From contig AP026124.1 of NCBI GenBank assembly GCA_030295235.1, positions 868,001 through 932,000 on the forward strand: a stretch of 64,000 nt of DNA, read 5' to 3'. Origin of the DNA: Fistulifera solaris (Eukaryota). Under the pieces are notes generated by a model, which did not search any database, was not told where the DNA came from, and saw nothing but the letters and a program-made list of their open reading frames with translations. Position 1 is the stretch's first letter. The number at the start of each line of letters is the position of its first letter. Positions 45,396 through 54,577 of the stretch are shown in pieces. The translations under genes were made by a program, and so were the position numbers.

Positions 45396-48300
45396 TTAGC
45401 GGGTGCAACAGTCCAGGTTTAACCCATTCGGCGAAGGACAGCAGTCACCAGTTAAGTGCAGGTCTGCGCATCGAGGATGAGACTCGCACGTCACACCAGA
45501 TTGCGATCCATTACTCGAATGCGTTTCATGAACCTTTGAGGCACCAGATGATTCATCTACTTGAGGGAAAGGTTCTGTTTGATTGCTGAAATATACATTT
45601 TTAGTGCCGCTTTTGTCGCCACTGATGGCCACAACGTCGAAATTGGATCTTGTTGCAATCCAATAAAGTACCTGACTCTTGCTCAACGCCGAATCAAGTT
45701 GCGAGCTGATCAAGTCTTGAGCCTCGGTCCAAGCAGTCGAAGCATCGAAAATTGCATGGTTAGAAATCACATATCCCTTCCAAGCCATCTCTGCTCCACT
45801 CGCTTGCGCTTCCAACACATTCCTATACTCATCTCGGACATAGTCTATCGAAAAGAGTTCTCCTGTAACCGCTGTCACTGGAAGAAAGTTGATCATATGC
45901 ACGTAGAGGTCCTTTGTCCCAAACCATGTAGAACAAATAGCGTCCATCATACCCAAATTTCCCACCATGTAGTTCCGGGAAAACTCCTCACTATAAACTT
46001 TTAACGCGGGCGAGCCATTCCTTTTTCCCTGAGACTTTGATGGCGACATCTGCCAATATGTTTTAGCTCCACGTATCTCGGTCGCAAGCAACAAGCGGGT
46101 AAAATCAGTTTCTGGTGATACGTCGGACTCAGGGTTTGCTGCTGCCCCGTGCCTAACAACGGACCACAAGTATGCGCCGTAGTAGCCATTTACAGCTTCA
46201 CTCGAGCTTTCTTGGGACTTTCCGTTGCCAAACGGAAACAATCCCGACGCAAACGAATGGCCGTCAAACCACGACTTGTGTCTTGCAGCAGGAAAAAGAC
46301 TCCATCAACAACCTTTGAATCTAAGTTGGTATTATGGGCAATATCATAGAAGATGGTGTCGACCTCGTTTCCGAATCTCTCAACAAATGTGCTGTTGAGG
46401 CTCCCCAATACCGCGCAAGCATACAAAAGATAACCATAATGGAAATGATGGTCATTGTATCTACGCAATGAAATGGAATTGAGATACAAGTCAGTTTGTC
46501 ATATGGTATGCTGATCGAACTTCTTGTGGACTTACCTTCCGTTTCCAAAATCTGCGTGAGAATCCAGCAAACCGTTGGAAGTCACCAAGCCTCCGAGGTT
46601 GGCATCAAAAACTAAACCATCCGTAACTCGATTTGTGAGGACTCGTTCCAGTATATTCGAGAGAAAATGGGCCGCTTGCTGCAGTATACCCGCCAAGTTT
46701 TCCTCCTGTATGCCATCAACAGCATTGTCGTCATCCTTTTCTTTTAGTAACACATTTGCAATATGAGCAAGCTGAGCAAGTCTAGCACTCTGTTTCCCGA
46801 ACCCATAAATATCTTCAGACACTGTTGGCAAAGATAATTTGATGTCTTCATAAAGACTCCGTACGATTTGCTGTCGAACAAACGGATCGTGCAAAGCTTC
46901 CGTCGTGCTTGATCCACTGTCCCCATCGAAACCTAAACTGGGAAGTACTTCATCGTACATCCACGTAGAGCCAACGACGGGTGACATGGGTCCTTTGATC
47001 GTTTTGTATGAGAGTTCAAATTCGTCATTCGCTAGTTTTACCAACTTCGGCAGACTATCTGCGTGATGAGGTAGTGCCAACATTAGCAACGGAAGGGAAC
47101 TCGTTGAACTACTAGACGCGGAGAAAGTCTCTGTCGAATATTTAAAGCGAATGGTTCCAAGACGCTTCGTTTTCAGAGACGAAGGAGCACTAGTTATCCC
47201 TGAAACGACTTTTGTTATCTTGTCAATACTCCCGATACTCTTTGTGTTCAAGTTGTGAGAAACGTCAGTTGTTGAAGCAGGTCGGAAGGTCCAACTGACT
47301 TGTCCTCCAGTTGGGTAAACTCCTGCGTGATAGACAAGCCTCTGAAGAGCCTTAGAAGACATTACATTCAAGTCCGACAAACTGGGCTGTGACTCGGTGA
47401 CATTCTGTCTTTCAGCGGGTGGTACATAAGCGAACCGTAAAACCCCGCTAAAGCTATGTTGGGCTTCAATAGATACCTTTTGAACTCTATCGAATGTCAA
47501 AGACAGTGATTCTGATGCGAATGCAAACCAATACTTGTTGTCTGTCGTCTGTACGACAAATTGGGTGCCCGTAATGATGTCTATTTTTTCATCCTCGCTC
47601 CTCTCGGAACTACACACGCTTGATAGTAAGTTCCGTCTTCCATTAAAGTCTATGTCTCCGTCTTCGTCGCGCGGACAAAACACATCAGCGATTCCGGGAA
47701 ACGCTCGGATAGCTGGCATTGAGTTTTTGTATTTGATTGTAATGTAGGGACTGCCCTGTACCAAATACGTTTCCCAAAATCCGCCCGACATCGTGCCATA
47801 TTTAAGAGTCACACTCAGTGCATCGAACTGTTCGATGTGCCGGCTCATCGTACCTTCTCGGCAAGCAAATGCCAAATCTGGAATAGCATAGTCATGAATT
47901 GATTTTGCGTCCTCTTGTCGATGACCAGCGGGATAAGACACCTGGAAGACATCATCAGACCATGTGTACGCATATGGATACACTGCCGTCGGATACGAAA
48001 GACCGTGATCGGCGGTTACAGGCAAAACAAGATTTACCCAGAATGCTCCGGTTGGAAATGGAAATGTAAATTCGCGGAAGGGGTCCCTTCCTTTGTAATG
48101 AAATCTCGGATGAAAAAGATTCTTTTGTAAAAAAGCAGAAACAGGGTCGCCCGCGTCAGCTCGATTCACGGAAGGGAAAGGCATCATGTACGCAGCCGGT
48201 GAGCTGTGAGATACCAGGAAAGACCCCGACTTGCTGAAGTGCAACACGGTAACAGAAACGGCAAATAGCAACATGGATACTCCGCCGACCCACAGAGATA

Positions 48301-48643
48301 TGTACGCCGTCGCATTTCGTTTCAATGGCGCAAAGGATATCATTCCGAATAAACAACGTTGACGATGACGATCTCCATTTGCATTTTCGTTCACCAATGG
48401 CTGAATCTCGTCACCTTTCAATAGTAATACGTGCGGTATATCCATGGAGTCGTTGACGGCAAGATCTTCGTCTTGTTCATTGTCGGTTGTTACAATTGAT
48501 TCTCCGACTAAAGAGTCTTGGTCGGCGCCTGTAGGGACTGTGCCGTTGCCGTTTGTTCTATTATCGACATAATCAGTACTGCCGTAAAAATAGAAATACT
48601 GAGGCTTTTCTTTACGCTTGACGCCGAGTTGTTCCTGTGCCAT
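45396..48643 (-). CDS. GH81 endo-1,3-beta-glucanase, membrane-anchored, with Cys-rich C-terminus
   Basis: FPTGAFWVN, LVQGSPYIT, DFGNGR|YNDHHFHYGY, RHKSWFDGHSFASG and QESSSEAVNGYY motifs. Intron 46461-46535; indel near 46290. Confidence 0.92.
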
Positions 48644-49492
48644 GGCTCAATTGAATGAAGAAATGCTCGTGCGAACAGTCTAAGAAAAATGACAAAATAT
48701 GCCTTTTGCCAATCTTATTTTAAACCAGCCTTGCCACGCCTCCATACGCTTGCGATTTCGCCTCTCAATAGTTGCTGCAATACCAAGTAATTGTTGTCTT
48801 TTGCCTTTGCCCTGATTTGCTTTTTCAGGTAACCTTACACCGTCATGAAAACAAACAACGGTGAGCGGAACAAAAAAATTAAGCGTGTCTGAAACTTTCG
48901 TGCTGATGCCTATTTTCGAGTATCTCGTAATGTGTAGCGAGTGACGAATGAGTTTTTTCGCCACTCGTCGCTCGGCATTACCGAAGAAAAAGAGAGCACA
49001 AGTTTGGGTCAGTATTCGGGACTTATCTATTTTAGAATTACAAATAATGGAGGCGCTTCCGTGCTGATGTTCATTGGTATCGTTCTAGGAGTAATTTAGA
49101 TCTACGCCACTTGCTTTAGTCTCGCTCGGAAGAATATTGGTTCATGACTGAAATGCAGTCGTGGCGCTGTTCCACACACAGAATCTATAGTAAATACTGA
49201 ACTCAACGATGTCGACATGAAAGAATCAATGCGTGCATTAGAAAGGAAGCTAGGTGTAGTCGGATCGTGTTTAAAACTTATGAAACTAACAAGCTGGCAC
49301 AAAGAGCGGAGGTTAGGTGGGAGTCTGTCTCGGAAAAACTAGACTCATGACTGAAATTCAATCGTGGTAAAGTTGATACAACACAATAGGCATATTATTG
49401 CAAAAGTGAAAGACAATGAACCCCAAGGCATTCGACGCAAAGACAATAGTATCAATGCGTAAAACACAAACATTAATATATCTTTCGCCGTT

Positions 49493-50865
49493 TTAAATAG
49501 GCACGTAGGGCTTATCAATAATATGCTTGTGTTTACCGAGAGTGCCGTGACTGACCATGGCTCCAAGGGCATCCACAACAATACGAAGAGCCATCAAGGA
49601 TGTAATATCGGCGTGATCATAAGGGGGACTGACCTCAACGACTTCCATACCACACAATCCTTCCTTGGCAATCAGACCCACCAACTTGAGCGCTTCACGA
49701 GGCAACAAACCGCCGGGCTCGGGCCAGCCTGTGCCAGGAACAAACGCCGCTTCAATCGAATCAATGTCGTAACTCATGTACACCGCATCACACCCGTCCC
49801 AGGCCCTCTCCAGCGCCATTTCTGCAATCTTATCAATGCCATATTGCTCAATGTCGTCCATGGTAAAGATATTGGTTTCACGCTCTACCATATTCGCCAC
49901 CGCCGGGCGCGGAACCTGCCACCCGCCAATTCCTATCTGCACCAAGTTCTTGGGATTGACGTTGGGCAAATTAGTGGCGTGGAAGTAGGGAGTCGTGTGC
50001 ATTCTCTCGTCAAGATCTTTTTCTTGAATATCGGCATGTCGATCCACGTGGATGATTCCAATGTTCTTTGACGTGACAGATGCGATACCACGTACGGTGG
50101 GAAAACCGATCGAATGGTCACCTCCCAGGATGATGGGCATAGTCCCCGTGGAAGCGATATGTGCAACAGCATTTGAAATCTGATCAAACGACTTTTCAAT
50201 ATTGGCAGGAATTGTGAAGACGTCACCGATATCGCAAAGTGTCTAAACAAAGTACGGAATGAGAACCAACAGAAGCAAAGGAGCGCAAAACCCATGGTCA
50301 CTTTTGTGTCTATTTACCATTTGTTCGCGGAGATCAATACCCTTTTCGTAATTGTAGGGCGTATACAAGGCCGAAATGCGTCGGATTCCTTGAGGACCAA
50401 AGCGCGTACCCGGACGGTAGGTGCAGCCTCCATCGAACGGAACGCCGACGACGGCACAATCGTACATGCCGACCTGGCGAGCATCTTCGACGTACGGGGC
50501 CTTGAGAAACGTGTTAATACCCGCAAAATGAGGAAGTTCTCCTCTGGAGAAAGTCGGAATTGTCTTATCTTCTAACGAAGAAGCACCCGGAAGACCAAAT
50601 TCCAGTGCATGGGCAATTTCTTCGTCAAACTTGGTCCTCGGAATTTCTGCTTCCTGAACGATTGAAAAGATTGAGATGAAAGGACTTGCACGAAAGAGTC
50701 GAAAGAATCGTTTGAAATACTTACTTTCAAAGCAGCCTTCCATCCCTTGGTAACCTTCGGATTGAAGGGATCGGGGTGATGAGCACGCGCTTGCTGTAGA
50801 GTCAAAGAAGCTCTAGCGATTTCGCGTGCAACAAGCTTGTGAGTGAGGCGATTGGCAATGGACAT
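49493..50865 (-). CDS. gdmH: Ureohydrolase (agmatinase family) with guanidine hydrolase GdmH hallmarks
   Basis: Introns 50654-50724 and 50243-50317. Motifs FSRGELPHFAGINTF, TYRPGTRFGPQGIR, GGDHS, DRHAD, DERMHT, DIDS and GTGWPEPGG. Confidence 0.85.
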
Positions 50866-52454: not shown

Positions 52455-53164
52455 TTAATGCCCACCTTCTACTGAAGGCTCCAGACCGACTAGAGTGATA
52501 CCCACACAAATGAGAAACACGCCGAACCAACCACGGAACGTCAGAACCTCATGCAGTAAACACGCCCCCAGAACACAACCAAAAAAAACACTGCCACCGA
52601 TGATCGTCGGTATACTCTGCATCGCCTGCACTCCCAAACTCGAGACAAAAAAGCTCAGTATTTCGGCCGCTCCGACGGCAGCCCCCGCACAAACGGCCCA
52701 ACGAATACCCGCCGCGTCCCAGTACAGAACATTCTCCTCATCTTCCGAGTTTTGAATGATAATATAAGACAGTAAGAGAGATCCCAGTAGAGCAGCAACG
52801 ATCTGTAACACAACACCACCCAAGATTGGGTGGATGGAAGCGGATCCTTTTTAATGAAAATGTTGTAAAAGGCATACGCGAGTGCACAAAGAAGGGCGGG
52901 GCCGATCCACACCGCGAGAGGTGGCGATGCTACGGACTGCAGTGAATCGGAAGAAACGAGCTCCACCAAAGTGCGAGGATCCATGGATCCTCCTTTTGTG
53001 GTGGCTTTTGAACCGACCAGCAGTCCATCTCTTTCTGCAGCAGCTCGTTGGAGAAGACGACGACCGGGTGAAGCTTGACTTTTCGGAGAGTCAAAACGGA
53101 GACGGCCGTACGCTAGAGACGGAGATGACGGAGCTTGTCTTAAAGAGCTATTGGATGATCCCAT
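52455..53164 (-). CDS. DMT/EamA-superfamily small transporter (one ~5-TM domain)
   Basis: ALLCALAYAFYNIFIKK...VLGACLLHEVLTFRGWFGVFLICVGITLV. One missing A near 52850. Confidence 0.75.
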
Positions 53165-53482
53165 GATGCTGAAACAGTTCCTCAAAAATGGTTGATTGGA
53201 TGGCTGTTGTCTGAGAGTTCCAAAATTTTGTCGGCACTTTCATTTTCACATCAGAAAAAGATCTGTGAAGGTTGCGCGAAGTGTCAACCGAGGGCGAAGG
53301 AGGAATAATCATCGACCCGGTACTCCCTGTGTGCGGAAGAGTAAATTTGAGTACCGGGCTTAGGCAGAGGTGCATGATAAGAAACGTGGTAGCTGTCTGC
53401 GACTATTACTCTCTAGCACAACGTGTAAGCGACCTTTGTTCACGACTGGAATTCAGTCATGAGTCACATTTCGTTTTCGCAG

Positions 53483-53692: not shown

Positions 53693-54001
53693 AATCTCTT
53701 GCTTTTTGCTATGCGAAACAACCTCTTTATTGCAAAGCACCGAGTTTTGTGTTTTTTATGTGGCTTTTTTTCTGCAACTGTGTGAAAAAACAAAGAAAAT
53801 CAGCTTATACCCGCGGGTGTGACATCAGTACCACGTTAGTCTGTCCATCATCAGACGGAATTTGGATGATGATGATGATTACTCGTAGTATTATTATTCA
53901 TTCGCACGTTTCACGATGATCCGATGACTTCTTCGGTGAATCATTATTCCTCATTCATTTGCAAAATTTGCAAGAACTATCGCCATTGTCACCAGAAGGA
54001 A

Positions 54002-54577
54002 ATGAAAGTTCCTTTATTTTGGTTGTTGTCGGTGATCTGCTCGCCTTACTGCCGTGCGGGCTCGTGGTTTGGTCAAGATCCAGGATGTACAAAGCCGTGT
54101 GTGCAAGGAGACGAATCCATTATGAGTCCGAAAGAGCATGGCACGTCGTGGACGCCTGTGCAGTCGCCGTTACGATGGGGATGCGATAGTCAAGTAGCCG
54201 ATCAAATTTGTAATTTCAACCGTCATTATGCGGAATATTCGGGTTATTGGCAAGCTACATCGTTCCTGGAAGAAGTTGACGGTGCGGTAAAGGAAGGAAC
54301 TCCTATCGTCTTTTATGACAGCAATACAGGGAAACCACTTTTCCGAGCGCCGGTGAATCGTTCGTGGGGAGAATTTTTGAAAGAATCTCGCAGTCATGGA
54401 TGGCCGAGCTTTCGTGATGACGAAGTCGTTTGGGAGAATGTTCGAGTGTTACCGGGCGGGGAAACTGTATCCGTCGATGGCACACATCTCGGGCACAATT
54501 TACCAGATAGCAAGGGTCGCCGGTACTGTATTAACTTGGTTTCGGTCGCCGGTAATCCGAATACGAGTCGTCCATAA
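54002..54577 (+). CDS. MsrB/SelR-like protein with signal peptide
   Basis: GKPLF, GWPSF, HLGH and RYCIN motifs. Confidence 0.75.
   Translation: MKVPLFWLLSVICSPYCRAGSWFGQDPGCTKPCVQGDESIMSPKEHGTSWTPVQSPLRWGCDSQVADQICNFNRHYAEYSGYWQATSFLEEVDGAVKEGTPIVFYDSNTGKPLFRAPVNRSWGEFLKESRSHGWPSFRDDEVVWENVRVLPGGETVSVDGTHLGHNLPDSKGRRYCINLVSVAGNPNTSRP

Follow-up and report, generated by a model that had tools for sequence, protein, structure and literature searches.

The gene annotated as 'agmatinase' in the diatom Fistulifera solaris quite probably codes for a GdmH-clade guanidine hydrolase, which an algal ancestor would have gained from a proteobacterial or SAR324-type bacterium and which would be imported into the mitochondrion. 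It lies in the window, by which we mean the whole stretch of 64,000 nucleotides analysed here. We infer that the enzyme converts guanidine and water to urea and ammonium at a binuclear site, probably occupied by Ni or by Ni and Mn. During import, the presequence would probably be cut after Arg-Ala, and urease in the same organelle would convert the urea to more ammonium for the organellar GS-GOGAT cycle. If this is true, all three guanidine nitrogens could be released without ATP, major groups of eukaryotic phytoplankton would have a second probable Ni enzyme in their nitrogen metabolism, and diatom urea-cycle maps and genome-scale models would show the wrong reaction at their 'agmatinase' step. 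The proposal is directly testable, as P. tricornutum carries the gene and can be edited, and T. pseudonana and F. cylindrus are listed without it (excerpts of PMC6356823 and PMC7990286).

Gene structure and identity of the product

The gene is located on the minus strand and consists of three exons and two introns; the spliced reading frame of 1227 nt encodes 408 amino acids (Table 1). The two-intron structure proposed in the sequence-only reading was confirmed, with GT-AG borders for both introns and with both introns missing from spliced contigs of the homeologue. All motifs quoted there were recovered in the translation, namely the presequence, EIAHALEFGLPGASS..FAGINTF, DERMHT, IGGWQVPR, and GTGWPEPGG. 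The product is identical to database protein P0001, which is named 'agmatinase [Fistulifera solaris]'. A second gene copy, the homeologue, resides on contig C1 and shares about 92% DNA identity. The contigs derive from four runs, which we presume to be RNA and for which there is no record as RNA. Because the spliced contigs carry the letters of the C1 copy (40 of the 40 variant letters listed, out of 75, with no residue changed), they report splicing and expression of the homeologue and not of the window copy. In the assembly, exon 1 of the C1 copy (L001) runs out of frame after the His-His codons. The homeologue's database protein P0002 and one spliced contig are in frame at this exon, and the frame shift is probably an assembly error.

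Table 1. Coordinates of the GdmH-type gene, of features around it, and of features at other loci (window positions unless a contig or locus is named)
Feature	Position	Strand	Description
Exon 1	50725..50865	-	residues 1-47: predicted presequence 1-28 ending in Arg-Ala, then His-His-Pro, the conserved start of the GdmH N-terminal extension
Intron 1	50654..50724	-	71 nt, GT-AG; spliced out in contigs of 2 of 4 runs
Exon 2	50318..50653	-	residues 48-159: N-terminal extension and Thr125 (= Synechocystis Thr97)
Codon of residue 124	about 50423-50425	-	adjoins specificity residue Thr125
Intron 2	50243..50317	-	75 nt, GT-AG; spliced out in contigs of 3 of 4 runs
Exon 3	49493..50242	-	residues 160-408 and stop; metal ligands H202, D226, H228, D230, D318, D320; also H241, Trp332 (= Trp305), E362
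Short 3' UTR	49471..49492	-	poly-A-type tail at 49471 in one contig, from the homeologue
Direct repeat	49142-49164 and 49345-49367		23 nt, downstream of the gene
Jump in contig depth	49342-49412		many loose ends
GH81 glucanase gene	45396-48646	-	spread over several frames: introns or frameshifts
EamA/DMT-like gene	52455-53165	-	small membrane protein; 1.6 kb upstream, same strand
Open reading frame	53879-54577	+	232 aa, signal-like start
Urease and UreG genes	C9 851519-855269 and C10 857788-861467		about 3 kb apart in both copies
Locus L122	6361-6638		riboswitch, then just a 43-residue gdmH remnant
Rubrobacter locus L110	4977-7765		gdmH, then sodium:solute symporter and urease genes, under a guanidine-I riboswitch

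The neighbouring genes (GH81 glucanase, Fuseless-like, EamA-like, and class I tRNA synthetase) do not form a pathway cluster. The EamA/DMT-like protein received an Atlas score of 0.96 and no Pfam match. Both genome copies show a frame shift in its gene near 52850, from an assembly slip or an unrecognised intron, and we found no evidence linking it to guanidine. The 232-aa reading frame, which is conserved in the C1 copy and has no Pfam match at 0.001, contains motifs that we take to resemble MsrB. Downstream of the gene, the jump in contig depth with its loose ends suggests a dispersed repeat.

To place the product, we relied on structure-linked searches, family models, and trees. A PDB search returned 7ESR/7OI1 with 535.7 bits and 9FEK with 532.5 bits, followed by the next entry at 171.7; according to the Foldseek titles, these entries are the guanidinium hydrolase of Synechocystis and the guanidinase of Nitrospira, respectively. 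E. coli agmatinase reached 112 bits, compared to 536 for GdmH. The N-terminal extension was aligned from residue 32 (7ESR) or 44 (9FEK), as opposed to residue 83 at the earliest for the other PDB entries. The legend of Extended Data Fig. 4, within the excerpt of PMC11410670, names six metal ligands and four guanidine-related residues. All ten are present (T125, H202, D226, H228, D230, H241, D318, D320, W332, and E362) when mapped through the PDB alignments, allowing for a two-residue offset of the deposited sequences. T125 corresponds to position 97 in Synechocystis and 105 in Nitrospira and is not unique, as guanidinopropionase also has Thr there. W332 corresponds to positions 305 and 313 and is replaced by Thr in the 57%-identical outgroup P0122; H241 and E362 are the equivalents of His222 and Glu344. 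Of 110 full-length near relatives, 107-110 retain the motifs bearing the diagnostic residues.

The product contains the arginase-fold domain PF00491 and stays below the NCBIfam cut-offs for agmatinase (TIGR01230, 150.5 versus 174.3; NF002564, 208.8 versus 302), arginase (TIGR01229, 127 versus 227.6), and HutG. The sole other PF00491 gene pair of the genome is a true arginase above its cut-off (313.7 bits). In the phylogeny, in which named cyanobacterial homologues represented Sll1077, the Fistulifera gene clustered with guanidinases and away from agmatinases and arginases. The Nitrospira enzyme was outside the tree and was compared by PDB search and published residues. Bit scores, diagnostic residues, missed agmatinase cut-offs, and the riboswitch context of the bacterial relatives described below thus agree with the GdmH-type identity suggested from the sequence, which we regard as strongly supported over agmatinase.

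The second claim, that a guanidinase hides under an 'agmatinase' label, was also supported, both for the database name and for the published diatom agmatinase. P. tricornutum XP_002184908.1, which falls into the cluster of a top match, is the orthologue, being 87% identical with unchanged motifs. It is listed as agmatine ureohydrolase in Table 2 of PMC6356823 (excerpt), where the enzyme is recorded as missing in T. pseudonana and F. cylindrus; agmatine hydrolysis was also removed from a T. pseudonana model (excerpt of PMC7990286). The excerpts of PMC7542463, PMC13248578, and PMC8777261 likewise call the diatom enzyme agmatinase. As XP_002184908.1 and Phatr3_J40880 are each the single P. tricornutum agmatinase, we infer that they represent one gene.

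If the annotation were right and the protein a true agmatinase, it would convert agmatine to putrescine in the mitochondrion. This reading is in line with database names and published maps, and the protein is the sole non-arginase ureohydrolase found in the Fistulifera genome. Agmatine might be supplied through an ornithine/arginine decarboxylase-like gene, as has been proposed (excerpt of PMC6356823). Synechocystis Sll1077 splits guanidine and not agmatine (excerpt of PMC8390497); for the Nitrospira guanidinase, one panel legend in the excerpt of PMC11410670 reports significant urea from agmatine too, a weak turnover. The scores under the agmatinase cut-offs, the distance to the E. coli enzyme, the presence of Trp332 and Thr125, and the riboswitch context of the relatives argue against this reading. 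Moreover, Table 2 of PMC6356823 (excerpt) lists arginine decarboxylase as absent, and the model reaction of the Phatr3_J40880 'agmatinase' carried zero flux (excerpt of PMC6779911). We therefore consider a true agmatinase very unlikely.

A search of the mostly open-access literature revealed neither an assay nor a discussion of an algal or diatom guanidine hydrolase. Heterokont algae were reportedly named as having probable guanidine hydrolases in the 2022 abstract of Funck and coworkers. The algal enzyme is thus probably already in print as a prediction. It is neither tested nor discussed in the excerpts of PMC12186494, PMC12704784, and PMC12623156, and algal names are absent from 12 of the 15 supplements of PMC11410670.

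Bacterial relatives and origin of the algal gene

The nearest bacterial relatives were taken as the best 80 of 556 loci, 26 of which were scanned with Rfam. A guanidine-I riboswitch was present in 24 of these 26 loci, and genes for an NMT1-type binding protein and a permease occurred in 71 of the 80. No riboswitch was seen in the locus DNA examined at L023, L084, L115, and L111. Among these, L023 and L115 are the two closest bacterial relatives, both of SAR324 type, with adjoining ABC-importer genes. No RNA family, the guanidine riboswitch included, was detected around the diatom gene. The GdmH of Rubrobacter (Table 1) has His-His-His-Pro within its first eight residues and lacks the Arg-rich leader. 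By analogy with its operon, SSF carriers are candidates for an algal guanidine importer.

Named near relatives of the Fistulifera protein were found in pennate and centric diatoms, brown algae, Phaeothamnion, the haptophytes Diacronema and Phaeocystis, and Tetraselmis; several further rows were counted as algal by tree position. We calculated a quick tree with 103 rows and a careful tree with 39 rows; the careful tree was made with a drop list of 42 identifiers and retained a single distant outgroup. The algal rows formed one group (94/84), which was joined to SAR324-type rows at 100/99, and the cyanobacteria were placed on a long branch of their own. An AU test did not reject algae and cyanobacteria as one clade (p 0.146). 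His-His-Pro was found in 79 of 80 bacterial loci versus none of 120 cyanobacterial-type proteins (first 60 residues). Identities amounted to 71-76% for the bacterial proteins, which were chosen as best matches, versus 59-68% for cyanobacterial-type proteins. Because of the shared His-His-Pro and the higher identities, a non-cyanobacterial origin of the algal copies is favoured. As just 2 of 88 genomes of the SAR324 phylum contain gdmH, SAR324 is to be seen as the sister and not as the proven donor.

N-terminal leader, maturation, and nickel loading

The Fistulifera leader comprises 28 residues with one Glu and with Arg at position -2, a residue that is also found in bacteria. We compared 71 eukaryote-type leaders with 78 bacterial ones, whose starts were picked by a script from ribosome-binding motifs. 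Arg at -2 before His-His-Pro was present in 68 of 71 and 75 of 78 rows, respectively. At most one acidic residue was found in 69 of the 71 eukaryote-type leaders versus 20 of the 78 bacterial leaders. The median acidic fraction was 0 for algal and 0.098 for bacterial leaders, and the hydrophobic fraction was 0.39 versus 0.26. Given the differing composition and the shared Arg-x-His-His-Pro, algae appear to have turned an inherited bacterial leader into a presequence. The AlphaFold model shows a helix at 4-23, with low confidence. Phatr3_J40880 was predicted to be mitochondrial by HECTAR (0.71), MitoFates (0.88), MitoProt (0.87), and TargetP (0.90), and urease was localised to mitochondria (both from the excerpt of PMC6779911).

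The sequence-only reading had deduced mitochondrial targeting from a basic presequence. Leader composition and the four predictors on the Phaeodactylum orthologue speak for the location; the basic residues alone are a weak argument, because the leaders of the bacterial relatives are also Arg-rich. The segment might accordingly be just an inherited bacterial Arg-rich leader on a protein that stays cytosolic, as the bacterial leaders are basic, of similar length, and end in the same Arg-x-His-His-Pro. In view of the fewer acidic and more hydrophobic residues of the algal leaders, the predictions for the orthologue, and the modelled helix, we regard a cytosolic protein as improbable.

Import into the mitochondrion may have a second role. 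Bacterial gdmH often adjoins a gene for an MPP-beta-like M16B peptidase and the Arg-x-His-His-Pro junction is inherited, a hint that the enzyme might also be matured by its import into mitochondria. An M16 peptidase with HxxEH motif was encoded at most 5 kb from gdmH in 10 of 83 loci and in several gene orders; these were the two SAR324 loci and eight of the ten beta/gamma loci, with none elsewhere. In one order, all 6 genomes with gdmH had M16B adjoining it; in a sample of 300 genomes from a class, this held for 5 of 6 genomes with gdmH, or for 4 of 5 when the search centre was left out. Among solved structures, M16B came closest to 3HDI, and MPP-beta chains ranked among those that followed; in the diatom genome, it matched MPP-beta best. 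Two alphaproteobacterial genomes encode a 33-34% identical M16 protein away from gdmH. We found no paper linking an M16 peptidase to a guanidine hydrolase.

These data allow the tentative and rather unlikely proposal that this GdmH subclade is made as a pro-enzyme, with the same leader being cut by bacterial M16B and by the algal mitochondrial processing peptidase. The Arg-rich leader would be cut two residues after Arg, thereby exposing an N-terminal His-His-Pro that may help to load nickel or to lock the hexamer, in place of HypA/HypB. The bacterial cutter would be the neighbouring MPP-beta-like M16B or, in Alphaproteobacteria, a housekeeping M16B; in algae, the mitochondrial processing peptidase would make the cut during import. 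The shared pro-peptide cut would then have been a pre-adaptation of the enzyme to its transfer into mitochondria. Under this proposal, haptophytes, diatoms, brown algae, and some green algae would hold a Ni-dependent guanidine route beside urease, hidden under the name agmatinase. Cleavage stays a hypothesis, since M16B also occurs in genomes without gdmH and since there are exceptions: L134 has the M16B peptidase but lacks the Arg at -2, and in L135 the motif reads His-His-Gly.

A peptidase dedicated to GdmH was considered as well. This reading was weakened by the class sample, in which 10 of 14 M16B-positive genomes had no gdmH. In eight examined genomes without gdmH, the M16B gene was located by urease genes (three), by PNPase (two), or elsewhere (three). 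At locus L122, the gdmH remnant (Table 1) sits between the M16B peptidase and urease genes and is a recent loss of gdmH.

By analogy with the characterised enzymes, the algal enzyme may depend on nickel. The sequence-only reading had pointed to HypA/HypB (GhaA/GhaB) or UreG-type proteins as nickel chaperones. UreG was indeed found, and HypA/HypB were not: HypA gave no PF01155 match in the genome (search control positive, 8/14), and none of 7 scanned out of 17 PF02492 matches exceeded the HypB cut-off, all being UreG or CobW/ZigA-type. HypA/HypB are not defining for the whole GdmH clade, because Nitrospira also lacks them (excerpt of PMC11410670). Of 83 bacterial loci, 69 encode a small His-rich partner next to gdmH, and both SAR324 loci are among them. 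Two single queries did not recover this partner from the diatom genome, and it had no match among longer proteins and no Atlas match; all of these are weak negatives.

Next to the specificity residue Thr125, 71 of the 110 near relatives carry Cys124, among them all named diatoms in the alignment; 79 of 80 bacterial relatives have Thr at this position. The AlphaFold model is weak in the pocket loops, with pLDDT < 50 at 86-94, 124-130, and 235-242. A GdmH descendant that came in algae to use Mn, to act on another small guanidino substrate (e.g., methylguanidine or guanylurea), or both, and lost its Ni-loading helpers, would be consistent with the diatom-specific Cys124, with the failure to find HypA, HypB, and the His-rich partner, with the diatom gene having no riboswitch around it, and with an orthologue that is not induced by starvation (see below). 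The Nitrospira crystal contains one Ni and one Mn (excerpt of PMC11410670). On the other side, the diagnostic motifs are retained throughout the near relatives, branches are short, and Nitrospira splits guanidine though it is also without Ni chaperones. Such a shift appears quite improbable to us, even somewhat more so than a cytosolic protein, and we keep to a guanidine hydrolase.

Role in nitrogen metabolism and comparison with known systems

Genes for urease, UreG, and a separate arginase are present in the Fistulifera genome (for urease and UreG, see Table 1), and the N-termini of all three proteins look presequence-like by eye. A GimA-like importer was not found in this genome. The search for a urea/guanidine carboxylase gave nothing over the cut-off, just biotin-carboxylase and biotinyl pieces. 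According to the excerpt of PMC6779911, transcript levels of J40880 were 175/175/115 without nitrogen, 101/155/123 with ammonium, and 156/209/106 with nitrate; they ranged from 74 to 226 and were not raised by nitrogen removal. The urease transcript amounted to 101/109/124 versus 13/27/112 (same excerpt). Diatom agmatinase is up at night together with urease (excerpt of PMC5156380), and plants and green algae have a guanidine-producing enzyme (excerpt of PMC11018352).

That external guanidine serves as a nitrogen source, as envisaged in the sequence-only reading, did not gain support, in that the orthologue's level was similar with and without nitrogen, unlike that of urease, and the searches for the bacterial-type importer and for HypA/HypB found neither. 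Scavenging of external guanidine under nitrogen starvation may still be the main job of the enzyme, with chances that we put somewhat below even. Scavenging is the role in cyanobacteria (excerpt of PMC12704784), the bacterial relatives adjoin importer genes, and the gene is widespread in diatoms, brown algae, haptophytes, and Tetraselmis. Against it stand the absence of a GimA-like match and the fact that J40880, in contrast to urease, is not induced by nitrogen starvation. The steady expression makes housekeeping recycling or detoxification more likely. Thus, the evidence points more to steady recycling or detoxification than to starvation-induced scavenging, and growth on guanidine is likely a side capacity.

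SpeB agmatinase and arginase share the arginase fold and the binuclear site (PF00491) with the diatom protein, which differs by Trp for Thr in its GTG motif and by scores below their family cut-offs. Diatom AgM (XP_002184908.1; Phatr3_J40880) is the same protein, for which the literature gives the reaction agmatine to putrescine and urea. Synechocystis GdmH (Sll1077, 7ESR/7OI1) resembles the diatom protein in 65% identity over the structural alignment, the N-terminal extension, the equivalents of Thr97 and Trp305, and the metal ligands. It needs HypA/HypB, neither of which was found in Fistulifera, and counterparts of ghaA/ghaB and gimABC were not found in the diatom genome either. Unlike its cyanobacterial counterpart, the diatom gene is eukaryotic, with two introns, a presequence, and no riboswitch, and its product has His-His-Pro and lies on a separate branch of the tree. 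The guanidinase of Nitrospira inopinata (9FEK; excerpt of PMC11410670) shares all ten residues and the absence of Ni chaperones, but it serves energy metabolism and is riboswitch-controlled, with an APC permease. The nearest relatives, at the identities given above among the best 80 of 556 loci, are the GdmH-type genes of Alpha-, Gamma-, and Betaproteobacteria and SAR324. They differ from the diatom gene by riboswitch-led operons with an ABC importer and the His-rich partner (69/83 loci) and/or the M16B peptidase (10/83), and by leaders that are rich in acidic residues and not presequence-like. They nevertheless share Arg-x-His-His-Pro with the diatom protein, and most of them also have its C-terminal tail.
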